Below, in pieces: positions 6,848-36,421 of a DNA stretch of 36,421 nt. A program made the position numbers and the translations under genes. The notes below the pieces were generated by a model, which was not told the DNA's origin, did no database searches, and saw only the letters and a program-made list of their open reading frames with translations. The DNA comes from Actinomycetota bacterium (GTDB lineage: Bacteria > Actinomycetota > Actinomycetes > BP-191). The stretch is from assembly GCA_040005895.1 (NCBI GenBank), contig JBDTYE010000001.1:1-36421 (forward strand). The letters are read 5' to 3'. Every line of letters starts with the position of its first letter. Positions within the stretch are counted from its first letter, which is position 1.

Positions 6848-6912
6848 CTCGCCGCGTCTGCGCAGCGGGGCTTTGTGCGCGCAGCGCTTACCGCTTCGGC
6901 TGGCCTCGGTGT

Positions 6913-10357: not shown

Positions 10358-10363
10358 GCAGCG

Positions 10364-10857: not shown

Positions 10858-10863
10858 TGGGTG

Positions 10864-10893: not shown

Positions 10894-10925
10894 GAGGAAA
10901 TCCGAAGTATTTCCAGGATTTTTTG

Positions 10926-11048: not shown

Positions 11049-11123
11049 CCCGGGAAATCCCGAGATGTCGGAGTGGCTAACGTGACGCCCCATGACGGGT
11101 AACCAGCAGTCGCCGGCCCGCTG

Positions 11124-11417
11124 ATGTGCGGCATCGAAGTCCAGGTCGAGTCGCTGGCCGACGTCGGCAGGCGGCTCACGCTCGCCGCCCAGGTGGCCGG
11201 TGACATCGAGAAGCTGTGGGCCGCACCGGATCTGCTGGCGGGCGCCCGTGATTGCGGTGACGAGCAGTTCGCCGGGGCTATCGCCCGCTTCCTCCTCACG
11301 TGGGGCTATGGGTGCGCCGCCCTGCACGCTGACGCCAAGACGCTCGCGGGCCTGCTCAGAAGGGCCGGTGCCATCTACCTCGATGTGGAATCGGCGATCG
11401 CTGCCGGTGCTCCATGA
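11124..11417 (+). CDS. EspC/DUF2580-like small helical protein (type VII secretion target-like)
   Basis: 97 aa. The N-terminal IEVQVESLADVGRRL... and C-terminal ...LAGLLRRAGAIYLDVESAIAAG resemble the EspC-type pattern (L.V.p..L ... aa..Y...d.a). Its stop overlaps the start of the next gene (ATGA at 11414..11417). Confidence 0.5.
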   Translation: MCGIEVQVESLADVGRRLTLAAQVAGDIEKLWAAPDLLAGARDCGDEQFAGAIARFLLTWGYGCAALHADAKTLAGLLRRAGAIYLDVESAIAAGAP

Positions 11418-12880: not shown

Positions 12881-12886
12881 ACCTGC

Positions 12887-16771: not shown

Positions 16772-16825
16772 GGGTCGGGTCAGAATACCGAGAGCGGTAG
16801 CCTCGGGTGACCCTAGGAGCCACGG

Positions 16826-17443
16826 ATGCCAGCCGTACAGTGCCCGAACTGTGACAGCCACGACATAGATGCGGTCGGCAAGACGCCCGCCGGCGACCTG
16901 CAACTCAAATGCGACGATTGCGGCACGGAGTGGACTCGCACCCCGAATCGTCCCTGCCCGAAGTGCGCCGCAATCGACGTCACGCACACCGACGCGGCTG
17001 GCTACCTGTGCCGCGGCTGCGGGCACAGCTGGCGTGACATCCCGATGGCGCCGCCGGAGCCGGTGCCGGTCAAGGCGACGCGCGCGCGAGCCGTCAAGTC
17101 CACCGCGGCCAAGTCGGCCGCCACGGTCGCCACCGTCGCGGCGACTGAAGCTGGGCGACCGGTCTTGGGCGGTGCGGCGCACCGGGTCGGCGCGGTTTGG
17201 GAAAAACTCGAAACGCATGCCGGCGAGCCGTTCACGCTCAAGAGCGGCCAGCAGTTCAGCTACCAGGTGAGCGCTGACGTGCTGATGCCCACAAGCGCCA
17301 ACTGGGACGTGCCCAAGGGCGAGTTCGCCGAGGCCTTACGCCGGATGCCCATTGCCGGTCCGGCGCAATTGAAGGACCTGCAGGCGGCGGCGTTCATCTT
17401 CGCTCTGCTGCAGGACGTGCGGATCGCTCCGGCCTGGCAGTAA
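16826..17443 (+). CDS. Hypothetical protein with two N-terminal CxxC...CxxC zinc ribbons
   Basis: 205 aa. Contains CPNCDSH..(17)..CDDCG and CPKCAA..(13)..CRGCG, then an Ala/Thr-rich linker and a C-terminal domain I do not recognise (FTLKSGQQFSYQVSADVL...). AGGAG lies 7 nt upstream of the ATG. The gene is divergent from hrpA across a 54-bp gap. Confidence 0.6.
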   Translation: MPAVQCPNCDSHDIDAVGKTPAGDLQLKCDDCGTEWTRTPNRPCPKCAAIDVTHTDAAGYLCRGCGHSWRDIPMAPPEPVPVKATRARAVKSTAAKSAATVATVAATEAGRPVLGGAAHRVGAVWEKLETHAGEPFTLKSGQQFSYQVSADVLMPTSANWDVPKGEFAEALRRMPIAGPAQLKDLQAAAFIFALLQDVRIAPAWQ

Positions 17444-21174: not shown

Positions 21175-21186
21175 CGGCAATTGCCG
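21175..21186. promoter_or_regulatory. 12-bp perfect palindrome CGGCAATTGCCG, 58 nt upstream of flp-1
   Basis: Read directly. It is AT-centred in a GC-rich leader, which makes it a candidate operator. Confidence 0.3.
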
Positions 21187-21243
21187 ATCTTCCTATCTCT
21201 GGCCCCTCAACGGGCGCGGATCATCCTCCGAAAGGGGAGCACC

Positions 21244-21414
21244 ATGCTGGAGCTCATCGTCAAGTTGCAGAACCGTATGGCGAACGAAGACGGCGCGACC
21301 GCCGTTGAGTACGGCATGCTCGTCGCACTGATCGCCGCCGTCATCGTCGGTACCGTCGCCGCTCTCGGCACCCAGATCAACGGTGCTTTCCAGACGATCG
21401 TCACGGCTCTGTAG
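21244..21414 (+). CDS. flp: Flp family type IVb pilin (copy 1)
   Basis: 56 aa, MLELIVKLQNRMANEDG/ATAVEYGMLVALIAAVIVGTVAAL. It has the canonical Flp G/ATAVEY processing motif and hydrophobic helix. GGGGAG lies upstream. Confidence 0.9.
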   Translation: MLELIVKLQNRMANEDGATAVEYGMLVALIAAVIVGTVAALGTQINGAFQTIVTAL

Positions 21415-21488
21415 TTCGCGCAATCAGGATGTCGCAGCGCCCGCAGTTTTCTTGTGGGCGCTGCGACTACTTACAGACAAGGGCTGCC

Positions 21489-21647
21489 ATGCGCGGGTTT
21501 GGTGCATTCCGAAACGTTGACGACCGCGACTCCGGTGCGACGGCGGTCGAATACGCATTGCTGGTGGCGTTCATTGCTACCACTATCGTCGGTGCCGTTG
21601 GCGCGCTCGGCGTAGTGCTCGGCCCGATGTTCGCGATCACGTGGTAG
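21489..21647 (+). CDS. flp: Flp family type IVb pilin (copy 2, divergent)
   Basis: 52 aa, MRGFGAFRNVDDRDSG/ATAVEYALLVAFIATTIVGAVGAL. It has the Flp motif but its C-terminus differs from copy 1. Confidence 0.85.
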   Translation: MRGFGAFRNVDDRDSGATAVEYALLVAFIATTIVGAVGALGVVLGPMFAITW

Positions 21648-21657
21648 GTGCTGAGCG

Positions 21658-22059
21658 ATGTTTCGGTCACTGAGGACACGGCGCATTCGAGACGATGCGG
21701 GAGCGTCCGCCGTCGAGATGGCGATCCTGCTCCCCGTGTTGATGGCCATCCTCTTCGGCGTCCTGGAGTACGGCGCCTATTTCTTCAACCGTATGACGCT
21801 GTCGCAGTCGGCCCGGGAGGGTGTCCGCCTGCTCGCCCTCGGCTCCACCTCGGCCAGCGCGCAGACGCGAGCGACGTCGGCCGCCGCCCCTCTCACGGGA
21901 GTGACCTTCCCGACCACGACCATCTGCCCGGTCGGCGCAGCCTTGACCGCGAACGCGACTCTTGCGGTCCGCCGGACGGTCAATTTCCCGTTCCCGCTGC
22001 CGGGCCTGACCACTTCGACAGTCATTACAGAGACGGCGGTGATGAGATGCGGCGTGTAG
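21658..22059 (+). CDS. tadE: TadE-like pseudopilin
   Basis: 133 aa. The N-terminus DDAGASAVEMAILLPVLMAILFGVLEYG is a TadE/TadF-type N-terminus. Confidence 0.85.
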   Translation: MFRSLRTRRIRDDAGASAVEMAILLPVLMAILFGVLEYGAYFFNRMTLSQSAREGVRLLALGSTSASAQTRATSAAAPLTGVTFPTTTICPVGAALTANATLAVRRTVNFPFPLPGLTTSTVITETAVMRCGV

Positions 22060-23102
22060 TTGGTGACGACAGCGGTGCGGTTGCGATATTCGTGGCAATC
22101 ATGGCCTTCGTCCTCATCGGGTCGTTGGCACTCGCCGTAGACGTCGGCGGTCGGTATCAGGAACGCCGCCAGATGCAGAATGCAGCGGACGCTGGTTCGC
22201 TGGGAGTGGCCAAGGACTGCGCTACGAAGGCTACCTGCCCCGTCGCCCCCGCCACGACTACCGCGAACGGCTACCGGTCGAGCAACACGACGGTCAGCAA
22301 CTCGTCTATCACGCGGGTATGCGGTCCGGCGGCCACGACGTTGCCGGCTTGTCCAGCGAACCAAGGGCCGTGGGACTGTCCGTTATTGCCGGGCGGCGCT
22401 CTTGCGACCGCGCCCTACGTCCAGGTGGAGACAAAGGCCTGGGCCCCGCCGCTGTTCGCTGGCGTATTCGGTAACACCGGAAACTGGGTCCGTTCGTGCG
22501 CTCGTGCGTCCTGGGGCAGCCCGGGCAGCCTCTCAGCCGCTTTGCCGATCACGCTGTCGAAGTGCGAGTTCGACAATGCCTTGCCACTGAAGGCGTTGCC
22601 GATTCCGCCGTACCCCGGCCCGTCCACGGTGATCTACCTGCACGATCCGGATCCAACGCACGTGTGCAAGGACAGCAGGAGTGGTGCGGATCTTCCCGGC
22701 GGATTCGGCTACCTGAGTACGTCGACGTGTACGTCCGTCATCAGTGACCTGCTGGGTTGGTTCGACGACAAGACGGGCAACTCGCCGCCGTCGTCGTGCT
22801 CCAATGCGATCTTCAGTGCGCTCGTCGGCACGACGATTCAGCTTCCGATCTTCAACGATCTGAACGGATCCCCGGGCACGAACGGGGCTTATCGGATGTA
22901 CGGCTACGCGTCGTTCGTCCTCACGGGTTACCAGCTCGGCGGACAGTACAAGCAGAAGGACGCCTCGCGCGGCAACGCCTTTCCTTGCTCGAATCCACAG
23001 AACTGCATCAGCGGTTTCTTCGTCAGCAACCCGGTGCCCACCCAAGGAACCATCGGTGGACCCCCGGGCACGGGCGTTGCCGTCGTCCAATCCAGCGGCT
23101 GA
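22047..23102 (+). CDS. TadG-related pilus assembly protein (Tad_N/TadE-G-like N-terminus)
   Basis: 351 aa from the ATG at 22047. Contains GDDSGAVAIFVAIMAFVLIGSLALAVDVG...QMQNAADAGSL and a Cys-rich C-terminal domain with LPGGFGYL. Overlaps tadE by 13 nt. Confidence 0.75.
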   Translation: MRRVVGDDSGAVAIFVAIMAFVLIGSLALAVDVGGRYQERRQMQNAADAGSLGVAKDCATKATCPVAPATTTANGYRSSNTTVSNSSITRVCGPAATTLPACPANQGPWDCPLLPGGALATAPYVQVETKAWAPPLFAGVFGNTGNWVRSCARASWGSPGSLSAALPITLSKCEFDNALPLKALPIPPYPGPSTVIYLHDPDPTHVCKDSRSGADLPGGFGYLSTSTCTSVISDLLGWFDDKTGNSPPSSCSNAIFSALVGTTIQLPIFNDLNGSPGTNGAYRMYGYASFVLTGYQLGGQYKQKDASRGNAFPCSNPQNCISGFFVSNPVPTQGTIGGPPGTGVAVVQSSG

Positions 23103-23129
23103 TACGCCGAAACGAGGGGAAGATTTCAC

Positions 23130-23978
23130 GTGACGCGAAGGATTGTCCTTTTCATTGTTGCTTTGTTGCTTGCGACGCTCGGCATGCTCGCCGTGCTCGT
23201 TTATGTACGCGACGCGGACTCGCGTGCCGTCGCTGCTAACTCACCGGTCACGGTCGTCGTGGCGAAGAGCGAGATTGCTGAAGGCACAACCGTCGAGGAG
23301 GCGTTGAGTAAAGGCGATCTCGCGACGCAGGAGTTCGCGGCCTCAGCCGTGCCGTCGGAGGCGGCGAGGACAACATCTGAGTTCAGTGGGCAAGCGCTGA
23401 CGACAATTTACAAAGGCCAGATCGTCGCGCCGACCTTATTCGGTTCGCCCCCGGCCGCCCCTCTGAAGTTTCCGATTCCAGCCGGGAAGATGGCGCTGGC
23501 AATTCAGGTGAGCGATGCGCAGCACGTCGGACAGTTCCTGGAGCCGGGTGCACACGTAGCGGTCTTCGATACCTTCACCAGCAGCACCGGCGACAAGGGT
23601 CCGTGGACGCCGAGCGGTGACGGGCTCTCCCAGAATTTCGACAACAACCAGGCGACCCGGCTGCTGCTCGACCGGGTCGACGTCCTCGCCGTGGGCGCAA
23701 CCACCACCGTCGTCGCCCAGAACAGCAGCTCCCCTGACACCAGCTCCCCCGGAACCGGCTCGAAGGACAAGACGGCGTCCGACGCCGCTAAGAGCGCGGC
23801 TGCGACACCTGTCGCGACAACCTCGGTTCTGCTGACGCTTGCAGTCGATCAGGCGCAGGCTCAGAAGCTGATTCACGCCTCGCAGACCGGCAGTCTGTAC
23901 TTCACGTTGCTGTCGGACAGCTACACCCCGAAACCTGCTCCCGGAGTCGACAACCGCAACCTCTTCGACGGGAAGTAG
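23130..23978 (+). CDS. cpaB: Flp pilus assembly protein CpaB/RcpC (SAF domain)
   Basis: 282 aa, GTG start. Signal-anchor IVLFIVALLLATLGMLAVLVY, then VTVVVAKSEIAEGTTV (SAF-like), typical of CpaB. Confidence 0.85.
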   Translation: MTRRIVLFIVALLLATLGMLAVLVYVRDADSRAVAANSPVTVVVAKSEIAEGTTVEEALSKGDLATQEFAASAVPSEAARTTSEFSGQALTTIYKGQIVAPTLFGSPPAAPLKFPIPAGKMALAIQVSDAQHVGQFLEPGAHVAVFDTFTSSTGDKGPWTPSGDGLSQNFDNNQATRLLLDRVDVLAVGATTTVVAQNSSSPDTSSPGTGSKDKTASDAAKSAAATPVATTSVLLTLAVDQAQAQKLIHASQTGSLYFTLLSDSYTPKPAPGVDNRNLFDGK

Positions 23979-23980
23979 TC

Positions 23981-25162
23981 GTGACAATTCTCGTCGAAGC
24001 GAACCAGGAAACGGCCGGCTACCTGCGGTCGGCACTCGGTCCGGGAACCACCGTTGAAGGCATCACCTCCCTGCGCCGGACACTTGAGCATGCGCCCGAG
24101 GATGTGATCGTCTTCGGCCCGGAGACGGACTTCGATGCGGCGTGCGAGTTCGCTGCGGCGGAGCGGGTGGCCAACCCCACCCGCGGTGTGGTGCTCGTCC
24201 GGCGGCGGGTCGACACGGCAGTTCTGGCTCAGGCGATGCGAGCGGGCATCCGTGAGGTGGTTTCAGCCGACAATCTCCAGCAGGTGAACGAAGCGTGCCG
24301 GGCCGTCGCGAGTGTTTCGAATGAATTGCGAGCCGCGCAGCGACTGCCTGGAGTCGTCGACCCTGGCGCGGGCGCCGGACAGGTGATCACGGTCTTCTCC
24401 GCAAAAGGCGGTTCAGGCAAGACCACGATCTCGACCAACCTGGGTGCGGCATTGAATCTCCAGGGCAGCAAGGTCTGTGTCGTAGACATAGATCTCGGCT
24501 TCGGTGACGTCGCCATCTCCATGCAGTTGTTCCCCACCCGCACCGTCGCTGACGCGGTGGCGTTGACACACCTCGACCAGACGGCCGTGCAGTCGCTCGT
24601 CACGCGCTACCGCGACCAGCTGGACACGATCCTCGCTCCGGTCGAGCCGGGCATGTCGGAGAGTATTCCAGGGCAGACGATCGTCGGCCTGCTGCGGGTT
24701 CTGAAGACGATGTACGACTACGTCGTCATCGATACGCCGCCTGCGTTCACCGAGCATGTCCTGTCAGCCTTGGACGAAACGGACTGGCTGCTGCTACTCG
24801 CGACGCTCGACGTACCCGCACTGAAGAACCTCAAGCTCGCACTCGAGACGCTCGACATCTTGAACTACCCGGAATCCCAGCGCCTGCTCGTGCTGAACCG
24901 GGCCGACTCTCAAGTGGGCCTGAACATGGGGGATGTCCTGAAAATTCTCGGCACCCCAATCGCGCTGGAGGTGCCCTCGAGCCGGGCCGTGCCTGCATCG
25001 ATCAACCGCGGAGTCCCGCTCGTCTACGACCAGCCGAACCATCCGGTCAGCCAGGCGATACGCAGGTTCGCGAAAGCGCAGTTTCCCCGAGGACTTGCAC
25101 CCGCCATAGCCGGACACGGACGGCGTGGCTTTGCATTGCACCGTAAGGGGGGTGCCGCATGA
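23981..25162 (+). CDS. tadZ: TadZ/CpaE ParA/MinD-like ATPase with receiver-like N-domain
   Basis: 393 aa. Deviant Walker A VFSAKGGSGKTTISTNLG, then VDIDLGFGDV. The position between cpaB and cpaF fits. Confidence 0.9.
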   Translation: MTILVEANQETAGYLRSALGPGTTVEGITSLRRTLEHAPEDVIVFGPETDFDAACEFAAAERVANPTRGVVLVRRRVDTAVLAQAMRAGIREVVSADNLQQVNEACRAVASVSNELRAAQRLPGVVDPGAGAGQVITVFSAKGGSGKTTISTNLGAALNLQGSKVCVVDIDLGFGDVAISMQLFPTRTVADAVALTHLDQTAVQSLVTRYRDQLDTILAPVEPGMSESIPGQTIVGLLRVLKTMYDYVVIDTPPAFTEHVLSALDETDWLLLLATLDVPALKNLKLALETLDILNYPESQRLLVLNRADSQVGLNMGDVLKILGTPIALEVPSSRAVPASINRGVPLVYDQPNHPVSQAIRRFAKAQFPRGLAPAIAGHGRRGFALHRKGGAA

Positions 25163-26535
25163 CCAGCCTCGCCGACCGAATGGCAGCAGCACGTCGCGCC
25201 CAGTTGGCACCCGAGGCCATCGCGCCCGCAGCCGGCCCGCGTCGAGCCGTCCGCACAGTCGACCCGTTCGCGGCAGTCAAACGGAGCGTCCACGCCGCCC
25301 TTGTCGAGACTCTCGGGCCGCGGCTGTACGACGCGCACATGACCCAGTCGGAACTGCAGGCCCAGGTCAGGCAGAGCCTGCAGATGGTGCTGGAGAAGGA
25401 GGAAACGCCGCTCACGCTGGTGGACCGGACTCGCATCGCCCAGGAAGTAGCGGACGACATCCTCGGATACGGCCCGTTGGAACCGTTTCTGCGCGACCCG
25501 GATGTCACCGAGATCATGGTGAACGGACCCTCTCAGATCTACGTCGAAGTCGGCGGTCGCCTCCGCTGGGTGGATGCGAGCTTCTCGGACGACATTCATC
25601 TCCGCCGCACCATCGACAAGATCGTCGGTCGCGTCGGCCGCCGCGTCGACGAATCCAGCCCCATGGTCGACGCGCGGCTGCCCGATGGCAGCCGTGTCAA
25701 CGCAGTCGTCCCGCCCATCGCGCTGGACGGCTGCATGCTCACGATTCGCAAGTTCGCTGCGGAGCCGCTAACGGCGCGCGACCTCGTGGGCCTCGGCACG
25801 ATAACGACGGCGGCGTGGCAGTTCATCGAGGCCGCGATCCGTGGCCGGGCGAACATCCTGATCGCCGGCGGAACGGGATCCGGCAAGACAACGACGTTGA
25901 ACGTCCTGTCTTCAGCGATTCCGGATGATGAGCGCATCGTCACGATCGAGGATGCCGCCGAGCTGCAACTGTTCCAGGCGCACGTGCTTCGACTGGAATC
26001 GCGCCCCTCGAACGTCGAGGACCGCGGTGAAATCACCATCCGGGAGCTGGTGCGCAACTCGTTGCGCATGCGTCCGGACCGGATCGTCGTCGGAGAGGTT
26101 CGCGACGGCGCGGCTCTCGACATGCTGCAGGCCATGAACACAGGTCATGACGGATCGCTGTCGACAGTCCATGCCAACTCGGCGCGTGACGCACTGGCTC
26201 GACTGGAAACGATGGTCTTGATGGCCGGCGTCGACCTGCCGATCCGAGCGATCCGAGAACAGGTCGCGAGCGCGCTCGACCTGGTAGTCCATCAGATGCG
26301 GATGAAGGACGGCTCGCGACGAATCGTGCAAGTGAGCGAAGTCATCGGCATGGAAGGCGACGTCATCACGATGCAGGACATCTTCGTCTGCGACTACTCC
26401 GCCGGCTTCGACGCCAACGGACTTTTCCGCGGCGTCCTGCGGCCGACCGGCCTGCGCCCGCACTTGTTGCAGCGCATGTCGGACCACGGGGTCACGGTCG
26501 ACGCCAGCCTATTCTTTGATCGGCTGCAGGCATGA
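25159..26535 (+). CDS. cpaF: CpaF/TadA secretion ATPase
   Basis: 458 aa. Walker A GGTGSGKTTTLN, TIEDAAEL, RPDRIVVGEVRD, GHDGSLSTVHAN. ATGA start/stop overlaps with both neighbouring genes. Confidence 0.95.
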   Translation: MTSLADRMAAARRAQLAPEAIAPAAGPRRAVRTVDPFAAVKRSVHAALVETLGPRLYDAHMTQSELQAQVRQSLQMVLEKEETPLTLVDRTRIAQEVADDILGYGPLEPFLRDPDVTEIMVNGPSQIYVEVGGRLRWVDASFSDDIHLRRTIDKIVGRVGRRVDESSPMVDARLPDGSRVNAVVPPIALDGCMLTIRKFAAEPLTARDLVGLGTITTAAWQFIEAAIRGRANILIAGGTGSGKTTTLNVLSSAIPDDERIVTIEDAAELQLFQAHVLRLESRPSNVEDRGEITIRELVRNSLRMRPDRIVVGEVRDGAALDMLQAMNTGHDGSLSTVHANSARDALARLETMVLMAGVDLPIRAIREQVASALDLVVHQMRMKDGSRRIVQVSEVIGMEGDVITMQDIFVCDYSAGFDANGLFRGVLRPTGLRPHLLQRMSDHGVTVDASLFFDRLQA

Positions 26536-28556
26536 GGGCCGTCCGGCGCGGTCTGTCTGTTGTCGGTATCGGCGGCGTCGCGATGTGTCTTGCTTTCGCG
26601 GCGGCAGCGACCGCGGCAACGCCCGACGTACGGATAGTCAGCGCCACGGCCGCCGATGGCAATGCCATGGTCGTGGTCGAGGTGGAGCTGCCTTCCTCGC
26701 AGCAGCTCGACGTCTCGCGAGTCACGGTCAGAGTTGCCGGCCAAGCAGCGCCCGCGACACTTACGTCGGTGCCCCGGGCCGCTCCCGAAGTTGTCCGTAC
26801 CGTTTTACTCGTCATTGACACCAGCGGGTCGATGCAGGGCCCTGGGCTGACCGGGGCGGTCCAGGCGGCCCGCAGTTTCATCGCGCCGTTGCCGGCGGAC
26901 GTGCGCGTGGGTCTGCTGACGTTTGCCAGCCAGACCAAGTTGGTGGTGTCGCCGACTCGGGACCGCGCAAGCGTCGATGCGGGTCTCGGCGCGCTGAATG
27001 CGGCTGGCGAGACCCGGCTGTACGACGGTCTGGCGGCGGCACTCACCAGGCTCGGTTCGGTCGGCGAGCGACACGTCCTCGTACTCAGTGACGGTGGTGA
27101 CACGCTGAGCACCGGCACTCTCGCGTCCGTGACCGGCGAGCTGAAGGCCTCAGGTGTAAAGCTCGATGCCGTGGCGTTCCGGACCTCGGAGCAGCAGCGC
27201 AAGGTTCTCCAGCAGCTGGCGCAAGCCACCGGAGGCACAGTTGTCTCCGCCGCGGACGCCAAGCAGGTCGCCGCCGCGTTCGAATCGGTTGCGCAGACGT
27301 ACAAGCCCCGGGCGACATTGGACGTTGCGTTGCCGGCCGGTTTGAAGGGCGTGGTGCCGCTCGAGGTCCGGGTCGAGACGCCGACGGGTGCGCTGGTAGC
27401 CAGCGCCGACATCACAATTGCCGACCGCGCACCGGCAGCGGTGACGGCGACGCCGACGCCGACGCCGACACCGACACCGACCGCGAGTACGGCCGTCGCG
27501 GCCCCGCCCGCGACGAGGCCGGCGTTCTCGTCGACGGCGCCGTCGGGGCTCGCCCCCCGAGTGTCTGTCCGGCTCCCGCGACCACTCGTCTGGGCGGCTG
27601 TAGCCATGGTGGCCGGACTCTTCATTCTGTTCGTGCTGCTGCTCGACCTGGGAGCGACGACAGCTCGCAGGCGGCGGCGAATGGCGGGAATACAGCAGTT
27701 CACCATCAACGCCGATACCGCCGACGAGTCGGCAGCGGGGCTGCCGACGACTACTGGAATCGCCGCCTGGCCCCGGCGGCTCGCCCGCTCCGCAGCGCAT
27801 TCGGATCGCATTGAAGCCAGGTTGATTCGCCTGCTGAGCCAGGCCGGCGCCGCGATCTCGCCCGAGGAGTTCGTGCTCGTGATCTTCGTGAGCATGCTCG
27901 CCGCGGCTACGCTGATCGTTTGGATCTCCGGCATTTTCGTGCTCGGCGCCGCGATCGGCCTGCCGGTGGGTGCGCTCGTGCCGATCCTGGTGATGCGGTT
28001 CCGAGCGCAGAGGCGCAGGGCGGCGTTCATCATGGAATTGCCGGAGACGCTGCAACTGGTCGCGGGCGCACTGCGATCGGGGTTCTCGCTCGGTCAGGCG
28101 CTCGACTCGGTCGTCAAGCAAGGAGCTGGACCGGCAGCTACGGAATTTGGCCGCGCACTTGCTCAGGCGAGGCTCGGAGTGCCCGTCGAGGAGGCGCTCG
28201 AGCAGGTAGGCGAACGCATGCAGAGCGACGACTTCCAGTGGGTCGTCATGGCGATCGGTATCAACAGGGATGTCGGCGGAAACCTGGCCGAAGTCCTGGA
28301 GACGGTTGCCGAGACGCTACGCGAACGGGAACGCCTGCGACGCCACGTCCGGGCGCTTTCGGCAGAAGGCCGCCTGTCGTCCTACATCCTTACTGGAATG
28401 CCGATCGTCATGGGTGCCTACCTGTTTCTGGTCCGGCCCGACTACGTCCGACCGCTCTACACAACTTCGATCGGCGTCGGTATGTCCATCTCGGCGGTTC
28501 TCATGGTTGCCGTCGGGTGGATCTGGATGCGCAAACTCGTTCAGTCGGAGATGTGA
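26532..28556 (+). CDS. tadB: Fusion protein: secreted vWA domain, (TP)5 linker, TM segment and TadB-type (T2SS F family) platform domain
   Basis: 674 aa, in four parts:
- signal peptide (VVGIGGVAMCLAFAAAATAA);
- MIDAS motif VLLVIDTSGSMQG...LSDGGDT;
- linker TATPTPTPTPTPTAST;
- TM segments plus the TadB pattern ELPETLQLVAGALRSGFSLGQAL...AIGINRDVGGNLAEVLE. Confidence 0.85.
   Translation: MRAVRRGLSVVGIGGVAMCLAFAAAATAATPDVRIVSATAADGNAMVVVEVELPSSQQLDVSRVTVRVAGQAAPATLTSVPRAAPEVVRTVLLVIDTSGSMQGPGLTGAVQAARSFIAPLPADVRVGLLTFASQTKLVVSPTRDRASVDAGLGALNAAGETRLYDGLAAALTRLGSVGERHVLVLSDGGDTLSTGTLASVTGELKASGVKLDAVAFRTSEQQRKVLQQLAQATGGTVVSAADAKQVAAAFESVAQTYKPRATLDVALPAGLKGVVPLEVRVETPTGALVASADITIADRAPAAVTATPTPTPTPTPTASTAVAAPPATRPAFSSTAPSGLAPRVSVRLPRPLVWAAVAMVAGLFILFVLLLDLGATTARRRRRMAGIQQFTINADTADESAAGLPTTTGIAAWPRRLARSAAHSDRIEARLIRLLSQAGAAISPEEFVLVIFVSMLAAATLIVWISGIFVLGAAIGLPVGALVPILVMRFRAQRRRAAFIMELPETLQLVAGALRSGFSLGQALDSVVKQGAGPAATEFGRALAQARLGVPVEEALEQVGERMQSDDFQWVVMAIGINRDVGGNLAEVLETVAETLRERERLRRHVRALSAEGRLSSYILTGMPIVMGAYLFLVRPDYVRPLYTTSIGVGMSISAVLMVAVGWIWMRKLVQSEM
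27450..27479 (+). repeat. In-frame hexanucleotide repeat (ACGCCG x3, ACACCG x2) encoding (Thr-Pro)5
   Basis: Read directly. It lies in the linker between the vWA and TadB parts. Confidence 0.9.
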
Positions 28557-29485
28557 TGAACCCAAATCTGTTGCTGTGGCTCGGAGCCGGCTCCGTGGGG
28601 CTAGCTGTGCTGGCGGCGATCTCGGCGTTCGGCGTACTGGACGCGCATCGGCGCGATGTGTCAAAGACGCTGGTTGTCGCCCACCGGATGCGAATCGCAG
28701 CAGGTCGCAGCGCGGTCGTTGATGAGTCGGCCAGTTTCTTCGATCGGGTTCTCCGGCCGGCCGGCGGCTCTATGCTGCGGATAGGCCTGCGTCTGTCGCC
28801 CGCCGGAGCGGTGGACCAGATCCAGAAACGTCTGGATACGGCCGGAAATCCGGTGGGCTGGTCGGTGGATCGGATCTTCGCTTGCAAGGGTCTCGGGCTC
28901 CTGATCGGCGCCTTCATCGGACTTCTCTACGGTCACAGCACAGTTGGTCTCGCGGTGTTCCTCGCTGGCGGGTTCGGCGCGTTCGGTTTCTTCACGCCCA
29001 ACATCCTTCTCTACAACGCCGGCCTCAAGCGTCAGCTGCTGGTCCGGTCGACAATGGCGGATTCGATCGACCTGTTGGTGGTCTGCGTCCAGGCTGGTCT
29101 GGGATTCGACGCCGGTCTCTCGCAGGTCGCACGCCGCGGTGACGGTCCGATCGCCAGTGAGTTCTCGCGAGTGCTGCAGGAAATTCAGATCGGCAAGCGG
29201 CGCAGCGAGGCGCTCGGCGACTTCGGCGAACGAGTCAACGTGGCAGAAGCACGCAACTTCGCGCAGGCCATTGTGCAAGCAGATGCCCTGGGCATTCCGG
29301 TGGCGAGGGTCCTGCACGAGCAGGCCAAAGAACTGCGCGTGAAGCGGCAGCAGCTCGCAGAGGAGAGAGCCCAGAAACTTCCCGTCAAGTTGCTGTTCCC
29401 GATGCTCTTCCTCATCTTCCCCGCCCTCATGGTGCTGGTCGCGGGTCCGGCCGCCATAAACGTGTCGCACCTGTTCTCGCACTGA
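28556..29485 (+). CDS. tadC: TadC (type II secretion system F family platform protein)
   Basis: 309 aa. The ATG overlaps the upstream TGA by 1 nt. Contains MADSIDLLVVCVQAGLGFDAGL...QADALGIPVARVL...KLPVKLLFPMLFLIFPALMVL. Confidence 0.9.
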   Translation: MNPNLLLWLGAGSVGLAVLAAISAFGVLDAHRRDVSKTLVVAHRMRIAAGRSAVVDESASFFDRVLRPAGGSMLRIGLRLSPAGAVDQIQKRLDTAGNPVGWSVDRIFACKGLGLLIGAFIGLLYGHSTVGLAVFLAGGFGAFGFFTPNILLYNAGLKRQLLVRSTMADSIDLLVVCVQAGLGFDAGLSQVARRGDGPIASEFSRVLQEIQIGKRRSEALGDFGERVNVAEARNFAQAIVQADALGIPVARVLHEQAKELRVKRQQLAEERAQKLPVKLLFPMLFLIFPALMVLVAGPAAINVSHLFSH

Positions 29486-29534
29486 CCGGTCGGCGCGGAT
29501 CCGCTTCGGAGCCCCTGCGGCCAATTGGGTAGAG

Positions 29535-30227
29535 CTAGAGGAGGAACGGAATCAGGCGTCTCTTAGTTGCCAGCCGGTAGGCAGCGTACGCCGGCAGGTT
29601 CGCGGCCAGTACCCGCTCTTCGTGGAGCGCCCGGAACAACTGCAGGCTAACCAACCCGAGCCACATCGTGATCGAGGCGAAGCCCGGCCGGGCCAGCGTC
29701 AACCCGAGAGAACCAGCTATCTCGCCGAAGTAGACGGGGTGCCGAACGAACCGGTACGGGCCCGCACTCACGACCTTGCGCGCTTGCGCAAGCACGCTGA
29801 AGCTGCGACCCAGCGTCGAGAGGCTCCAGATCGACCAGGCCAACCCCGTGAGGATCAGCAGATCGGCCAGGACGCCGATCGCGCGGCCGTGGTGCCCGCG
29901 CGGCAGAAAGACGAATGCGAAAGGCAGCCAGGTCGCAACGATCGCCGCGACGTGGCTCGACCACGATTTGGTCGTCGCCCCCGCAGTCGAGCGTCTGAGA
30001 TAGGCGAATATCACGACGGCGTAGAAGAGAGCTGTGAGCAGGGCGCCGGCGAGCGCCACCGCGTCGAATTGCTTCCTTGCGTTGGCAATCGCCCCGAGGA
30101 GGTTGAGCGTCAGCAGCCCACAGGCGAGCGGGACCATCAGAAGTCGGCCTAGGTCGATCCGCGCTTTGCGCCGGAGCGGAACTGCTTCGTCGTCGGGCGT
30201 GCTGTGAAGGCTCGGGGTCGTCGTCAT
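29535..30227 (-). CDS. Isoprenylcysteine carboxyl methyltransferase (ICMT/PEMT) family membrane protein
   Basis: 230 aa from the ATG at 30227. Multi-TM, with a C-terminal GPYRFVRHPVYFGEI...LHEERVLAANLPAYAAYRLATKRRLIPFLL, the classic ICMT-family signature. ATGA overlap with the upstream ATPase gene. Confidence 0.8.
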   Translation of the reverse strand: MTTTPSLHSTPDDEAVPLRRKARIDLGRLLMVPLACGLLTLNLLGAIANARKQFDAVALAGALLTALFYAVVIFAYLRRSTAGATTKSWSSHVAAIVATWLPFAFVFLPRGHHGRAIGVLADLLILTGLAWSIWSLSTLGRSFSVLAQARKVVSAGPYRFVRHPVYFGEIAGSLGLTLARPGFASITMWLGLVSLQLFRALHEERVLAANLPAYAAYRLATKRRLIPFLL

Positions 30228-31219
30228 TCGCGAAAGATCCTGTCTATCAGCTCTTCCCGGACCAGCCGCCCACACGGGTCGAAGCGGCTGTGACTGAACT
30301 GCTTCTGGAACTCGATGTCGATGTCGGCTCTGCCCGTGCGGTTCTTCTCGATCGAACAGATCACCCACTCTCGAAACTGTTCGGCGTTGACGGTCGAATA
30401 CATGAGATGGTGCCTGGCGACCGCATGCCATTTGTCATTGAGCATCAGCGCGATGTCGGCTTCGTAGGCGATTGCCGTCGACCCGCGCATGTGCGCCAGC
30501 GTTGTCCTACCAGCGGCCAGTCCGTGGTGGTCTGCGGCGCAAATGGCAATGACGGGTACGCCGAATTCCATCGCGCAGTCCTTGAGCGATTCGACGACGA
30601 CACTGACTCGGTCATCTTCGGTGCCTGCCGAGTTCCCGACCGCAACCTTCTGCAGGTAGTCGACGAGGACGACGCCGCCGCCATCCAGTCCGGCTGCTAT
30701 GGCGCGTATCTCCTCCGGCCCCGTCGATCGCCCTGATGCGCTGACAAGCTGCATGCGGTCGGCGTACGACGCGATGTGCACGAGCGCTGCCGCAGCGCCG
30801 GGAAGTCGGCCGATCCGCCCGAGGAGCCCTTGGTCGGTAGCCCCTGGGGCGCGCAGTGACGTGGCCAACTGTGCCAGCGTGGCGCCGTCCACCGGATCTG
30901 CGAGCCCTGCCTCCATCGCTACCAGCTTCTGCAGGAGGACTCGCTCTTCGTGCTCGTAGCACACGTACGCCGCCCTGCCTCCGGCCGACACGATGTTGCG
31001 CGCTATCTGGAGGGCGAACGTGGTCTTTCCCAACCCCGGCGCGCCTCCCACGACAATCAGTTCACCGGCCCGAAGCCCGCCGGCCAACTCCCGGTCGAGC
31101 GGGGAGAATCCGGTCGGCCACGGTGCTGCGCTGTAGGGTTCGCCGGCACGCGCCGCGGCGTCGGCTGTCGCCACGACGTCGCTAAGATGCCTCACTCGCC
31201 CAGCGACCGGATCAGGCAC
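30224..31219 (-). CDS. DnaB-helicase C-terminal-domain-like (RecA/KaiC superfamily) ATPase, stand-alone
   Basis: 331 aa, GTG start (uncertain). Contains GFSPLDRELAGGLRAGELIVVGGAPGLGKTTFALQIARN (Walker A), VCYEHEERVLLQKL and VVLVDYLQ (Walker B). There is no DnaB N-terminal domain. Confidence 0.7.
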   Translation of the reverse strand: MPDPVAGRVRHLSDVVATADAAARAGEPYSAAPWPTGFSPLDRELAGGLRAGELIVVGGAPGLGKTTFALQIARNIVSAGGRAAYVCYEHEERVLLQKLVAMEAGLADPVDGATLAQLATSLRAPGATDQGLLGRIGRLPGAAAALVHIASYADRMQLVSASGRSTGPEEIRAIAAGLDGGGVVLVDYLQKVAVGNSAGTEDDRVSVVVESLKDCAMEFGVPVIAICAADHHGLAAGRTTLAHMRGSTAIAYEADIALMLNDKWHAVARHHLMYSTVNAEQFREWVICSIEKNRTGRADIDIEFQKQFSHSRFDPCGRLVREELIDRIFRE

Positions 31220-31299
31220 TGATCAGCCGATCCGTCGAAAGAGCCTGCGCGAGGGATTGACGCCCATCCGCCCTGCTGCCGTACGTCCAACCGCGGGCA

Positions 31300-31929
31300 C
31301 TACGAGGCGAGCAATCCGAGGCGAAGGGCTTCCATAATGGCTTGTGTCCGGTTCTCGACGCCGAGCTTCTCGTAGACCTTCGAGATGTGCGCCTTCGCCG
31401 TCGAAGAGCTGATGCAGAGACGCGCCGCGACACTGCTCACGGGAATTCCCAGCTTCAGGAGATCGAGGACATCTCGCTCGCGGGCGGTCAAGGTGACTCC
31501 TCTACCCGCAGCCATCCTCCGGCGCATGGCGCCGGCGAGGTCAGCTGCCGTGAACGCGTGCGGCGATGCTGCTGCGTGGCGCACCGCGGCAACGAGCTCG
31601 CAGGATGCAGCGCTTTTTGTGACGAATGCCGAAGCACCTCCATCGAGCGCGCGCAGCAAGTGCTCATCCGAGTCGAGCATGGTCAAAACCACGATCCCCA
31701 TGTTCGGGGCCAGTTCCCGCAATTGCGGTACGAGATCCAGGCCGCTGCCATCCGGCAGGTTCACGTCGACGACCGTCACAAGTGCCGGCCCCGTCCACAC
31801 GGCTGCGCGCGCCTGTGCGCACGTCGAGAGCTCCGCGACGACAGTCATGTCGTCCTGGGCCTCGAACGTCCGGCGCAAGCCGGATCTGATGAGTTCGTGA
31901 TCGTCGATGAGCACCAGGTCCATCGTCAT
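31300..31929 (-). CDS. NarL/LuxR family response regulator
   Basis: 209 aa. The receiver has LIDDH, VVDVNLPDGSG, VLT and FVTK. The C-terminal LuxR HTH reads LTARERDVLDLL...ISSSTAKAHISKVYEKLGV. Confidence 0.9.
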   Translation of the reverse strand: MTMDLVLIDDHELIRSGLRRTFEAQDDMTVVAELSTCAQARAAVWTGPALVTVVDVNLPDGSGLDLVPQLRELAPNMGIVVLTMLDSDEHLLRALDGGASAFVTKSAASCELVAAVRHAAASPHAFTAADLAGAMRRRMAAGRGVTLTARERDVLDLLKLGIPVSSVAARLCISSSTAKAHISKVYEKLGVENRTQAIMEALRLGLLAS

Positions 31930-33491
31930 GAGAAGTCCTCTCCGATCGAGGCTTCAACCAGCAGGCCGCTCGGTGCGCGTTCCGCAACGAGCAAACGGCC
32001 GCCGACCATTGCCAGACGCTGCGCGGAGTGGCGCTGCCCAAGATCCCTGGGATGGAAATCGCCGTCGTGCTGCAACCGCAGGAACGCGGTCGGCGGCTCC
32101 ACGACCAGTGTCACCCATAGATTTCGGGCGCTCCCGCCCTCGCAGGCCTGCTTCGTGAAGTCGTGTGCGACCCGGAACAACTCGATCTCCGCGCCGGCCG
32201 GGAGCCGAAACGAACTCTCGTCCAGGGTGAGATGCACGGCGAGTGGTCCGGCGGCGCCTGCATTGCGGACGCAACTGCTGAGGGCAGAACCCAATCCGCG
32301 CTCGACCGACCGACTGGATCTCAGGTCCGTGATCGAGGCACGTATGTCCTGGATGATGCGCGTGGTTCGTGACCGCAATTGGGTGATCGAATCAGCGAGG
32401 GCATCGTCGACTCGAGCCGCCTTCGTATGCAGCAGATCGAGCTCGAACCCTATGTAGGCAACATCTTGGGCGACACCGTCGTGCATGTCATGGGCGAGTC
32501 GGCTGCGCTCCTCGACCGTCACGGCTGACCGGACTTGTTCGAAGAGCGTCGCCGTCTCGAGCCGGATCGCGTATTCCTCCACGGTCGCCCGGACAGCTTT
32601 CATCGCTTCTTCGGTGAACTGCGCGGCATTAGGTACTTGGAGCGCGACAAGCGCGAGCACACCGTCCGGAGAAAGCACGGGAACCACGAACAGCGTGGAG
32701 CCGGCGCGTCGACCTGGATTCCCGGCGCTGACATCCGCCGGTCGGGTGTCGATTACCGGCTGACCGGTCTCCCACGCGATCTGCATCGGCCCTGGTCCCA
32801 CTGAAGGATGCCGCCAGGGGACGCGCGTCACTCCACGCATCGTGATCGGCACCAGGTACGCATCCCCGACGTGAAGCAGCACCGCGCCGACAGTCGCGTG
32901 ACATGCGTCGAGACAGGATTCGAGGAGCACTTCGCAGGTCGTCGCGACGTCGAGACTGCCGGGGAGCTTCGTGGTGACCGAGCGCAGTTGTTCTATTAGG
33001 GCTCGCGCCTCGGCATATCGCTGCGCCGAACCGAACTCGGTGGAGGTGTTGTGTCGGCCTATCCAGCTCCCGGCCGAGCCGAAGCCGACACTCAAGAGAA
33101 CCCACTGCGCGGACATGCCCAAGTAGTCGTGTGTTGATTCATGCAGCTGGCCATGCCCGACGAGCCACACTCCGAGGAGCAGCGCCGAACACAACCCACT
33201 TGCCTCCAGGGAAGCGAAGAACCCGCCGCCAAGACCGGCGAAGAACACACCGACGGCGGTGGCAGGCAGCATGGGGCTGTGACCGCCGCCGGTCCATAAG
33301 ACCGCGAGCGCCGATAGTGACGTCCACCAGAACCCGAGTAGCGACAGCTGTCGATCGGGGACAATTCGACCGCGGATGTACAGCTCCGGGGCGGCAAGCG
33401 GTATGACCCAACATCCTGAGAGCGTGTTCGGCTGCGTGAGCACGATCACGACGAGTGAGAGTGCGAGAAGGCAGCTGCGGAAAACAGCCAT
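31926..33491 (-). CDS. Membrane sensor histidine kinase (TM region, GAF, HisKA_3, HATPase-like domain)
   Basis: 521 aa from the ATG at 33491; a longer start at 33665 is possible. Hydrophobic N-terminus, GAF-like middle region, and H-box ERSRLAHDMHDGVAQ. ATGA overlap with the regulator gene. The C-terminal catalytic domain motifs look degenerate (see findings). Confidence 0.8.
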   Translation of the reverse strand: MAVFRSCLLALSLVVIVLTQPNTLSGCWVIPLAAPELYIRGRIVPDRQLSLLGFWWTSLSALAVLWTGGGHSPMLPATAVGVFFAGLGGGFFASLEASGLCSALLLGVWLVGHGQLHESTHDYLGMSAQWVLLSVGFGSAGSWIGRHNTSTEFGSAQRYAEARALIEQLRSVTTKLPGSLDVATTCEVLLESCLDACHATVGAVLLHVGDAYLVPITMRGVTRVPWRHPSVGPGPMQIAWETGQPVIDTRPADVSAGNPGRRAGSTLFVVPVLSPDGVLALVALQVPNAAQFTEEAMKAVRATVEEYAIRLETATLFEQVRSAVTVEERSRLAHDMHDGVAQDVAYIGFELDLLHTKAARVDDALADSITQLRSRTTRIIQDIRASITDLRSSRSVERGLGSALSSCVRNAGAAGPLAVHLTLDESSFRLPAGAEIELFRVAHDFTKQACEGGSARNLWVTLVVEPPTAFLRLQHDGDFHPRDLGQRHSAQRLAMVGGRLLVAERAPSGLLVEASIGEDFS

Positions 33492-33874
33492 GGCTTTCGG
33501 GTGCTGATCATTCAGCCGAGAGGAGCGGCTCGCAGGCTTGGCTGTCTGTAGTTTGGTCGGAGCGCCGGCGTGGACTTGCCGGCGTCCATCGTGCTGAACT
33601 GACCCTCGGCCGCTCGCGAGAGCGCCGGAGCGCCGACCCGCCGACACGCCAGTGGTTACGCCCATGCGCCCCCCTCAGAGCGTTCACCGGACTGCAGAGT
33701 CCGATGATTCACGCGAACGAAGGGCCATGAGGTTGCATCCGCAAACACCATCATTTCGAGCTACTCGAGCTCTGAGACCCGGCCGAAAGTGACTGACCGA
33801 TGCCCCCTGTTGTGGGCACCCTGGCTGCGCAGATGGAGTAACGCTGGTCAGCGGTTAGTGGGGAGTCGGACTTC

Positions 33875-36421
33875 TCACACCTCGTACGCCGACGGGGCGG
33901 GACAACTGCAGATGAGGTTGCGGTCGCCGTACGCGCCGTCGATGCGGCGCACCGGCGACCACCACTTGCCGGCTCGCAGGGACGGCAGCGGGTAGGCCGC
34001 GACCTGCCGCGAGTAGGGATGACTCCACTCGCCGGCAATCATGGCTGCGGTGTGGGGAGCGTTGTGCAGCGGGTTGTCGACGTTGCCCGGTGCGACGGCG
34101 GCGATCTCCGCGCGGATCGCGATCATGGCGTCGCAGAACCGGTCGATCTCGGCCAGGTCCTCGGACTCGGTCGGTTCGATCATCAGCGTCCCGGGGACGG
34201 GGAAGCTCATAGTCGGCGCGTGGAACGCGTAGTCGACGAGCCGTTTGGCGACGTCGTCGACGGTCACAGCCGTGTCTTTGGTGATCTGTCGCAGGTCGAT
34301 GATGCATTCGTGCGCGACCAGGTCGTGCCTTCCGGTGTAGAGGACCGGGAAGTGCGGTGCCAGCCGCCGGGCGATGTAGTTGGCGCCGAGGATCGCGACC
34401 TGGGTCGCGTGAGTCAGCCCGTCGCCTCCCATCAGCCGGATGTAGGCCCAGGAGATCGGCAGGATTCCGGCGGAACCCCAGGGCGCGGACGACACCGGGC
34501 CCGGTCCGGTGGCGGGGCCGGCTTCGGGCGTGAGCGGGTGGTTGGGGAGAAACGGCGCGAGATGCGCGCGCACGGCGACCGGGCCGATGCCCGGTCCGCC
34601 GCCGCCGTGCGGGATGCAGAACGTCTTGTGCAGGTTGAGGTGGGAGACGTCGGCGCCGAACTTGCCCGGCTGCGCGAGCCCGACGAGCGCATTCAGATTG
34701 GCGCCGTCGACGTAGACCTGTCCGCCTGCGTCGTGGACCAGCCCGCAGATCTCGGTGATCGTCGACTCGAAGACGCCGTGGGTTGACGGATACGTGACCA
34801 TCAGCGCCGCGAGTTGATCGCCGTGCTTAGCGATCTTTGCCCGCAGGTCACCGACGTCGACGTTGCCGCGGTCGTCACAGGCGACGACTACCACGCGCAG
34901 GCCGGCCATGACCGCGGAGGCCGCGTTGGTGCCATGCGCACTCGACGGGATCAGGCAGACGTCCCGGTTGTGGTTGCCCTGCGCGGTATGCCATTCGTGA
35001 ATGGCCAGCAGACCGGCGAGCTCGCCCTGCGAGCCGGCGTTGGGCTGCAGCGAGACCGCGTCGTAGCCGGTGATCTCGGCCAGCCACGATTCGAGATCCT
35101 GCACGATCCTGCGGTAGCCGGCGGCCTGGTCGAGCGGGGCGAACGGGTGCATCCCGGCGAACTCCGGCCAGGTCACCGGGATCATCTCGGTGGTCGCGTT
35201 GAGCTTCATCGTGCACGAACCCAGTGGGATCATCGACCGGTCCAGGGCGACGTCCTTGTCTGCGAGCAGCCGCAGATAGCGCAGCATCCCAGTCTCGCTG
35301 CGATGCGAGTGAAACGTCTGGTGCGTAAGGAAAGCCGACTCCCTTGTGAGCTCGGGCGGGATCACTTGGGAGGTCGTCGTCTGGTCGAGCGTCGCGATGT
35401 CAGCAGTGACGCCGAACGCCGCCCAGACGGCTTCGATGTGCGCCCTGGTCGTCGCCTCGTCGGCGCAGATCCCGACCAGGTCGTCGTCGACGAGGCGCAG
35501 GTTGATGCCGCGTTCCCGCGCCCGCTCGACGGCTTGGATTGCGCCACCGGCCGTCCGCACCTGAATCGTGTCGAAGAAGGCTTCGTGTACGACGTCGAGG
35601 CCGCCGGCCTCGAGACCGGCCGTGAGCAGAGCGGCGTACCGATGCACGCGTTGGGCGATAGCCGTGAGGCCGTCGGGGCCGTGATAGACGGCGTACATGC
35701 TGGCCATCACGGCGAGCAGGACCTGCGCCGTGCAGATGTTGCTGGTCGCCTTCTCCCTGCGGATGTGCTGCTCGCGCGTCTGCAGCGCAAGCCGGTAGGC
35801 AGGCGCGCCGTCCGCGTCGATGGTGACGCCGACCAGCCGCCCGGGCAGTGAGCGCTCCAGACCGGTCCGCACCGACATGAATGCCGCGTGCGGACCGCCA
35901 TAGCCCAGTGGTACGCCGAAGCGCTGGCTGGTGCCGACGGCGATGTCGGCGCCGAATTCGCCCGGCGCCTTCAGGAGTGTGAGAGCAAGCAGGTCAGTTG
36001 CGACCGTGACGATGGCGCCGCGCGCATGTGCCGCTTCGACGACCGGGCCGAGATCGCGAACCTGTCCGCTGGTGCCGGGGTACTGGAGCAGCACGCCGAA
36101 GATCTCGCCTTCCGGCAGGCCGGCGGCTGTGTCCGCGACGACGACTTCGATGCCGAGCGGCCGGGCACGCGTGCGTACCACTGCGATCGTCTGCGGATGC
36201 GTGTCCGAGTCGATGATGAACGCGCCGCCGCTCTTGGCAGTGCGGCGCGCCAGCGACATGGCCTCCGCGGCCGCAGTGCCCTCGTCGAGGAGGGACGCGT
36301 TGGAGATCGGCAGGGCGGTCAGGTCCGAGACCATGGTCTGGAAGTTGAGCAGCGCCTCGAGGCGGCCTTGCGAGATCTCCGGCTGGTACGGCGTGTAGGC
36401 CGTGTACCAGGCCGGGTTCTC
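33875..36421 (-). CDS. gcvP: Glycine dehydrogenase (decarboxylating) GcvP, 5'-truncated by the window edge
   Basis: The reading frame stays open to position 36421 ([34 protein letters not shown]...). Also contains [18 protein letters not shown] (PLP-lysine region). The stop TGA is at 33875..33877. Confidence 0.95.

Follow-up and report, generated by a model that had tools for sequence, protein, structure and literature searches.

Probable accessory and regulatory genes, among them a DnaB-derived ATPase and an ICMT-fold methyltransferase, flanking an actinobacterial Tad pilus locus

Beside a Tad (Flp) type IVc pilus locus in a 36,421-nt stretch of actinobacterial DNA lie four adjacent minus-strand genes that probably have accessory and regulatory roles for this locus, and they appear to make up three units rather than a single module. 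The whole stretch is referred to as the window (W in lists of loci, where L001 and similar numbers denote related loci); its source is likely an uncultured soil actinobacterium, and it is present in four soil/root metagenome DNA runs. The units are a two-component pair of sensor histidine kinase and response regulator (HK-RR), a stand-alone ATPase consisting of a DnaB-type C-terminal domain (CTD), and a membrane methyltransferase of the ICMT/PEMT superfamily. Tad pili serve adhesion, biofilm formation and, in some actinobacteria, DNA uptake, and Tad loci together with their two-component regulators are already known; accessory and regulatory Tad components of monoderm bacteria are poorly known, and it is the DnaB-CTD-only ATPase and the ICMT-fold methyltransferase that seem to be new as recurrent Tad neighbors. 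The biochemical roles suggested below for all four products are read from domain identities, motif states and conserved gene linkage.

Linkage of the ATPase to Tad genes emerges from a survey in which one genome per GTDB species was scanned, 477 genomes were found to contain an ATPase relative, and the best 80 loci of these were examined by tblastn with window probes, de novo clustering of open reading frames (ORFs) and Pfam annotation of cluster representatives. Tad genes accompany the ATPase, as in the window, in 28 of the 80 loci (context A). In these loci the ATPase gene has the end of the Tad operon (tadC, VWA-tadB, tadA, tadZ, rcpC) on one side and, in 24 of them, the HK-RR pair on the other, usually in the order flp<-(flp<-)RR<-HK / ATPase-> ... 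<-tadC<-tadB. At least 15 loci have flp directly downstream of HK-RR, with one to three flp genes following the regulator; thus, with tadC on the other side, Tad-related genes are found on both sides of the ATPase. In W, L001, L002, L008, L009 and L011 the HK-RR pair is inverted, so that it precedes the ATPase on the same strand; in the others it is divergent from the ATPase. In L003 the order tadB-tadC-ATPase-flp-ICMT occupies a single strand. This placement of the ATPase is kept at 43-63% protein identity despite inversions and the insertion of genes before tadC, the slot between ATPase and tadC being empty, occupied by ICMT or filled by a gene of unrelated type (REC-like, Pro/Ala-rich linker, GAF-like), and the genes beyond the HK-RR/ATPase/tad block vary between loci. 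A possible connection of these genes with the neighboring pilus locus had been raised in the initial annotation of the stretch, and it has proved stronger than was proposed: 24 loci have HK-RR next to the ATPase, and wherever the contig reaches far enough tad genes are alongside as well. No description of a KaiC-like or DnaB-like ATPase associated with Tad/Flp in Actinobacteria was found in the literature searched, the coverage of which was incomplete.

Three other contexts were distinguished. In 32 loci of Nocardioidaceae type (context B) the ATPase gene is the single gene separating rplJL from rplKA-nusG-secE, with an Mce operon adjoining; in 14 of Dermatophilaceae/Intrasporangiaceae type (context C) one to three tandem copies lie upstream of dxr-rseP-ispG; and in four (context D) the gene is found between UvrD-like and XPB/ERCC3-like helicase genes that are on the opposite strand, the remaining two loci being uninformative. 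A neighbor-joining tree with a provisional midpoint root shows that context tracks ATPase phylogeny, with the Tad-linked members forming a basal grade under that root; as judged from record titles, context tracks taxonomy as well.

Several additional proteins are encoded in these neighborhoods. The ATPase-tadC slot encodes in L004 (7606-9045), L012 (9071-10549) and L072 (2136-3680), with equivalents in L053, L061 and L075, a cytoplasmic protein whose N-terminus is receiver-like and whose GAF-like C-terminus (GAF_2 8e-05 in L012) follows a long linker rich in Pro and Ala; the L061 protein contains long PAPPKK and AEEAR repeats. Two to three tandem ATPase paralogs precede dxr-rseP-ispG in the Dermatophilaceae-type loci L038, L044, L046 and L051 (~6800-10450). 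A barnase-barstar pair (ribonuclease and inhibitor) lies between ATPase and dxr in L020 (8990-9822) and also in L034, with barstar found in L025 too. The UvrD/XPB-context loci L057, L068, L076 and L079 (~5600-14300) also contain Helicase_C_3 and CGNR zinc-finger genes.

The initial annotation had recognized in the ATPase a DnaB-C/KaiC-like P-loop core without the helicase N-domain, and this description holds. A look-up of the ATPase gene of the window itself returned no existing record. DnaB_C is the only strong Pfam domain (94.5 bits), AAA_25 and KaiC being weaker and the KaiC match spanning residues 35-103 only, and both of the motifs originally quoted, GAPGLGKT and VVLVDYLQ, are present. 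Only DnaB_C was detected and alignments begin at about DnaB residue 159-185, i.e. there is no DnaB N-terminal domain, nor is there a fused nucleic-acid-binding module. A profile of the family matches Geobacillus DnaB (2vye/2r6a) in the PDB at about 1e-24, the strongest single-copy match, also DnaB, being 4e-24, with KaiC next at ~1e-18; residues 5-102 align to DnaB 159-258, so that the linker helix is included. The AlphaFold2 (AF2) model is confident (pLDDT 88.7), and the 50 best structures that Foldseek matches to it are, without exception, helicases of the DnaB family (best 4esv, 2.9e-19, TM ~0.70, 22% identity); around residues 107-155 it has an additional helical insertion that DnaB lacks.

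An alignment of the family, with a mean column identity of 58%, has as invariants G59xxGxGKT66 (K65/T66), E89-H90, D187-Y-L-Q-K191, R245-G-S...Y252-E-x-D255 and K292-N293-R294-x-G, so that the Walker A, Walker B, catalytic Glu and KNR motifs are all intact; R294 is presumably the arginine finger, as judged from the DnaB motifs. Since these catalytic motifs are intact and the linker helix is retained, the protein is probably ring-forming or otherwise oligomeric. The score is nevertheless below every DnaB equivalog cut-off (TIGR00665, 86.7 bits vs. 385) as well as below the FlaH model NF004723 (22.7 vs. 194) and the KaiC_arch models (31-34 vs. about 248). Because all equivalog cut-offs are missed and the N-terminal domain is lacking, the protein is a DnaB-derived, N-domain-less ATPase and not a replicative helicase, and the label "replicative DNA helicase" given to family members by some sources (JGI) is wrong. 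An exhaustive profile search of 1.84 billion proteins (E<=1e-30, representatives at 50% identity) yielded 345 representatives, nearly all of ~320-370 aa, which on this evidence is a small, discrete and sharply bounded family of stand-alone proteins.

Assignment of the neighboring membrane protein to the ICMT/PEMT-type methyltransferases, also made in the initial annotation, is upheld both by Pfam (PEMT 1.3e-10, 42.1 bits against a gathering score of 25; ICMT 9.8e-09, 36 against 24) and by the invariant residues of its subfamily, R162-H163-P164-x-Y166, E169 and E203-E204, that constitute the RHPxY...EE cofactor motif. The subfamily, which comprises about 25 full-length clusters in a database search, aligns as a profile to the solved ICMT structures 4a2n and 5v7p (E 3e-07 to 1e-06). 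At least four transmembrane helices are predicted and the AF2 model is all-helical (pLDDT 83); Foldseek gave nothing at E<=0.001 for this model, the best meaningful matches being the related steroid 5-alpha-reductases (TM 0.46-0.51), and the protein falls under the ICMT equivalog cut-off (NF040696, 32.9 bits vs. 160).

All eight homologs of the methyltransferase that were looked up are encoded in or beside Tad loci, and for six of the eight neither an ATPase gene (within 6-7 kb) nor HK-RR is close by. In four of these (L083, L084, L087, L089) the ICMT gene is the next gene after tadC on the same strand, and in L089 it also abuts the gene of a prepilin peptidase (Peptidase_A24, TadV); it is divergent from flp in L086 and lies 4.4 kb upstream of flp in L085. 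The other two, L082 and L088, repeat the architecture of the window including the 4-nt overlap of ATPase and ICMT genes. Conversely, the ICMT gene occurs in only four of the 80 ATPase loci (L001, L002, L003, L011), all within the window subclade: it directly follows the ATPase gene in L001 and L002, as in W, is on the opposite strand in L011, and in L003, a locus of the ATPase survey outside the eight, its start is overlapped by the stop of a short flp gene. The four-of-80 pairing and the six ATPase-less loci indicate that ICMT and ATPase are each tied to Tad and not to each other. Judged from these neighborhoods the methyltransferase is a Tad accessory independent of the ATPase, and their coupling in the window is a peculiarity of this lineage, in which two genes that are each linked to Tad lie side by side. 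An association of an ICMT with Flp/Tad was not described in the literature searched, with the same incomplete coverage.

The Flp pilins of ICMT-bearing loci (W, L003, L085-L087) are free of cysteine, and hence have no CaaX-type cysteine to be prenylated. The flp genes next to the response regulator in L012, L030, L043, L045, L050, L053 and L071-L077 encode pilins mostly with two cysteines in the C-terminal tail. Pilins of the ICMT-bearing loci (window 21181-21647, L003 3685-3939, L085, L086, L087) are also shorter than those found beside canonical HK-RR pairs.

In the two-component pair the regulator is, as first annotated, of the NarL type: Response_reg and GerE domains are both found, and orthologue alignment shows the phospho-acceptor pocket to be intact (DD...D...T...K conserved) and the GerE recognition helix to be highly conserved. 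The annotation of its partner as a GAF histidine kinase stands in part. GAF_2 and HisKA_3 are present, and the phospho-accepting His and the DxxxQ motif are both kept (MHDGVAQD), H337, G339, A341 and Q342 being invariant. However, HATPase_c gave no Pfam match in the window kinase even at E<=0.1, and the N box (QEAxxNxxKH), G1 (DDGxG) and G2 (GLxxMxER) are replaced in W, L001, L008, L009 and L011, whereas the remaining full-length orthologues have them in canonical form. The degenerate region is the C-terminal part, encoded by window 31926-32330. HATPase_c was found in ten of 15 kinase orthologues scanned with Pfam; the Pfam lists of the L082 and L088 kinases are also without it. Loss of the ATP-binding boxes coincides exactly with the clade whose HK-RR pair precedes the ATPase on the same strand, and the kinase of the window lineage is a probable pseudokinase by these motif states. 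A search for a shared regulator-binding motif, by k-mer counts over 16 HK/ATPase intergenic regions, gave GC-rich words only.

The layout originally described for the window is confirmed in all its particulars by ORF listing and Pfam scans: four minus-strand genes (Table 1), two ATGA overlaps read directly from the letters (ATPase/ICMT at 30227..30224, kinase/regulator at 31929..31926), 80 nt between the regulator stop (31300) and the ATPase start (31219), and convergence with the Tad operon, for which ~50 bp had been given and in which the tadC stop (29485) and the ICMT stop (29535) are 49 nt apart. Start codons of the window genes agree with those of homologues. A promoter and terminator scan of 29300-33950, uninformative for a high-GC actinobacterium, gave no promoter-like sites and two terminator-like sites, the latter both intragenic and not above the count in shuffled sequence.

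The plus-strand operon (21181-29485) encodes Flp pilins with the processing motif, TadA, TadB, TadC, TadZ and RcpC, the set by which a Tad (Flp) type IVc locus is recognized. Both pilins are short and Cys-free and have a G/ATAVEY motif (DGATAVEYG on inspection of the sequences), and the fusion of a VWA domain to TadB is also found in 24 related loci. No match to the prepilin peptidase TadV (Peptidase_A24) was obtained among the window genes scanned with Pfam; a TadV-type gene may be located elsewhere in the genome.

Table 1. Genes of the Tad operon and of its minus-strand flank in the window
Feature	Position	Strand	Supporting match
Flp/Fap pilin	21181-21414	plus	Pfam Flp_Fap 7.6e-14
Flp/Fap pilin	21429-21647	plus	Pfam Flp_Fap 1.7e-08
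TadE/G-like pseudopilin or assembly protein	21648-23102	plus	Pfam Tad (PF13400) 3.3e-09
RcpC/CpaB	23130-23978	plus	Pfam RcpC 1e-17
TadZ/CpaE-type ParA/MinD-like ATPase	23981-25162	plus	Pfam AAA_31, CbiA, ParA
TadA/CpaF secretion ATPase	25159-26535	plus	Pfam T2SSE 1.3e-65
VWA domain fused to TadB platform protein	26532-28556	plus	Pfam VWA_2 4.9e-15, T2SSF 6.6e-20
TadC platform protein, last gene of the tad operon	28553-29485	plus	Pfam T2SSF 2.1e-18
ICMT/PEMT-superfamily membrane methyltransferase, 230 aa	29535-30227	minus	Pfam PEMT 1.3e-10, ICMT 9.8e-09
Stand-alone DnaB C-terminal-domain ATPase, 331 aa	30224-31219	minus	Pfam DnaB_C 9.3e-27, plus AAA_25, KaiC
NarL/GerE-type response regulator	31300-31929	minus	Pfam Response_reg 1.3e-20, GerE 6.5e-14
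Membrane GAF-HisKA_3 sensor kinase	31926-33491	minus	Pfam GAF_2, HisKA_3 (4.2e-11)

How the three units might serve the pilus can be outlined from these observations. The methyltransferase would most likely methylate a membrane-embedded Tad substrate, for which the Flp pilin is the best candidate and also the most economical one, because the ICMT gene adjoins tadC, flp or TadV in different loci, the topology is that of a membrane protein and the chemistry, which uses S-adenosylmethionine, faces the cytoplasm. TadV-type prepilin peptidases are without the N-methyltransferase domain of PilD; if the linkage is functional, a separate ICMT-fold enzyme methylating Tad pilins would fill this gap. The HK-RR pair would act as a locus-specific transcriptional controller of flp/tad, a role proposed because flp lies downstream of the regulator in related loci and because two-component control is known for tad loci and common for pilin production (PMC8467076). 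In the window lineage the degenerate kinase would probably function as a phosphatase or scaffold rather than as an autokinase. The ATPase would be an additional cytoplasmic nucleoside triphosphatase (NTPase) that modulates either the TadA/TadB/TadC motor or the HK-RR signal. A functional linkage would make testable both two-component signaling by a kinase without an ATP-binding domain and the existence of a RecA-superfamily secondary ATPase in bacterial Tad machines, as in their archaeal relatives.

Such a secondary ATPase has archaeal parallels: FlaH/KaiC-like ATPases and vWA proteins are associated with archaeal type IV pilus loci (Makarova et al., PMC4858521), and in the Epd pili, the archaeal relatives from which Tad derives, the part of secondary ATPase is taken by FlaH (PMC6668835). 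By analogy the window ATPase would correspond functionally, and not as an orthologue, to FlaH/ArlH and the KaiC-like ATPases of archaeal type IV filaments. It shares with these a single RecA-superfamily domain, the absence of DNA-replication partners and a position beside TadA-like and TadB/C-like genes, and the VWA-TadB protein of the window recalls the archaeal vWA association. Unlike FlaH/ArlH, it scores far below the FlaH model and reaches up to 87 bits with DnaB models; in contrast to the archaeal loci its gene in most loci converges with the tad genes or diverges from them rather than lying within the operon, and TadZ is still present, so that the ATPase would be an addition and not the TadZ counterpart. 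The more ambitious proposal, that the flank supplies two undescribed Tad components, namely a DnaB-derived third NTPase convergent on the FlaH/KaiC role and a Flp-methylating ICMT-fold enzyme replacing the function that TadV lacks, is speculative and on present evidence rather unlikely. On this proposal the ATPase may also supply or gate an ATP-dependent signaling step in the window lineage, where the kinase has lost its ATP-binding domain and HK, RR and ATPase would have become one operon.

A number of observations weigh against placing the flank in the service of the pilus. As context tracks both the ATPase tree and taxonomy, part of the ATPase-Tad linkage could be inherited synteny, and since the family also occupies ribosomal (32), dxr (14) and UvrD/XPB (4) sites in other actinobacterial lineages, its core function need not be pilus-specific. 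L084 is a Tad locus with the same VWA-TadB fusion but no ATPase; DnaB is a nearer relative of the ATPase than FlaH or KaiC are, and part of the DnaB DNA-binding loop motif is kept; a methylated Flp pilin was not documented in the literature searched; and no RNA run containing the stretch was found. The main rival is a housekeeping helicase or translocase derived from DnaB and acting in repair, recombination or DNA uptake and processing, with the position near Tad a matter of inherited synteny or at most of Tad-dependent uptake. Both sequence and fold place the ATPase nearest to DnaB C-terminal domains, the DnaB H4-like loop R-G-S...Y-E-x-D and the KNR motif are kept, 52 of the 80 loci are without Tad context, including the four that are UvrD/XPB-flanked and conserved housekeeping neighborhoods, and pili of the Tad type are used by Micrococcus luteus for natural transformation. 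Transformation in that organism is dealt with in PMC8467076. However, the ATPase has neither an N-terminal domain nor a fused nucleic-acid-binding module, and the UvrD/XPB genes are on the strand opposite to it; moreover, in Tad-linked lineages neither inversions nor insertions have taken the gene out of the HK-RR-flp/tad block, whose outer flanks vary, and in L003 it is co-directional within tadB-tadC-ATPase-flp-ICMT. A housekeeping motor is accordingly held to be possible, although doubtful.

The initial annotation had instead suggested ATPase and methyltransferase as a dedicated, translationally coupled pair representing a new envelope-modification or signaling pathway under HK-RR. The ATGA overlap in the window, the same overlap in L082 and L088, and the direct succession of the two genes in W, L001 and L002 are consistent with such a pair, but the neighborhood survey confines the adjacency to one subclade (four of 80 loci), within which L011 has the ICMT gene on the opposite strand and L003 has flp in between, six of eight ICMT homologs follow tadC or flank flp without an ATPase in the neighborhood, and other Tad-linked loci have unrelated genes or nothing after the ATPase. 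The dedicated pathway fails by the refuting condition that the initial annotation itself had set, and it has become very improbable. Pairs of P-loop ATPase and membrane protein are also common in defense islands, and an anti-phage system or a part of a mobile island beside the Tad locus was considered for this reason. It was rejected as a defense system after a PADLOC scan of the four proteins gave weak, short matches only: mad8 to ~50 residues around the P-loop of the ATPase (8.3e-05, 20 bits) and two CARF-type models to the GerE helix-turn-helix of the regulator (21 bits), with no match for the ICMT-like protein or the kinase and no meaningful one for any of the four. The position in the locus is stable across divergent genomes, GC content is even across the window with the four-gene flank equal to its surroundings, tRNA and Rfam scans of the window gave no match, and the rest of the window consists of ordinary chromosomal genes, e.g. 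transporters, HrpA and GcvP; a defense or mobile-island origin is hardly credible.

The Tad flank reading can be set against the systems in which each part is better characterized. Canonical Tad loci such as the PprAB-controlled tad of P. aeruginosa and the cpa locus of Caulobacter resemble the window in having Flp with a G/XXXXEY motif, TadE/G-like protein, RcpC, TadZ, TadA, TadB and TadC in one operon and in encoding a sensor kinase and a response regulator at the locus. The window version differs in that it is monoderm actinobacterial with VWA fused to TadB, in that a prepilin peptidase gene was not found in the window, in that its regulator is a HisKA_3/NarL pair whose kinase has lost the ATP-binding boxes, and in having the DnaB-CTD ATPase and ICMT-like methyltransferase genes in addition to the canonical set. 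With DnaB the ATPase shares Walker A, the Walker B DYLQ, the R-x-S...E-x-D-A-D loop and the K-x-R-x-G motif; unlike DnaB it is without the ~150-aa N-terminal domain, the primase-binding and collar part of the helicase, and does not keep the H3 SQL(S/N)R motif, identity being about 22%.

In the methyltransferase there is a conceptual analogy to PilD, in that a methyltransferase of the membrane is found together with genes for the processing and assembly of pilins (Peptidase_A24 in L089, flp coupling in L003), although the ICMT/PEMT fold and family are unrelated to the methyltransferase region of PilD, pilin is here a candidate substrate, and methylation may be on a carboxylate as well as on N. 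There is likeness in sequence to the ICMTs (Ste14; M. acetivorans 4a2n; Tribolium 5v7p) and PEMT, which are likewise multi-pass proteins with a C-terminal cofactor-binding half and the RHPxY...EE motif. Unlike true ICMTs, the window protein has an unrelated N-terminal transmembrane region and belongs to a subfamily specific to actinobacterial Tad loci.

Two features at a distance from the Tad locus were also observed in the window. A pair of ORFs running in the same direction (105 aa and 364 aa, 11414-12880), the longer without a Pfam domain, adjoins the HrpA-type helicase gene (12887-17218). Between 10.0 and 11.1 kb there is no ORF of normal codon bias and no Rfam match, and positions 10100-10860 within it are occupied by a ~500-nt non-coding unit that is present as a tandem duplicate, each copy of which opens with a near-perfect 40-nt palindromic hairpin GAAGGCCCCTCCAAGTATGAGTTGGAGGGGCCTTC.

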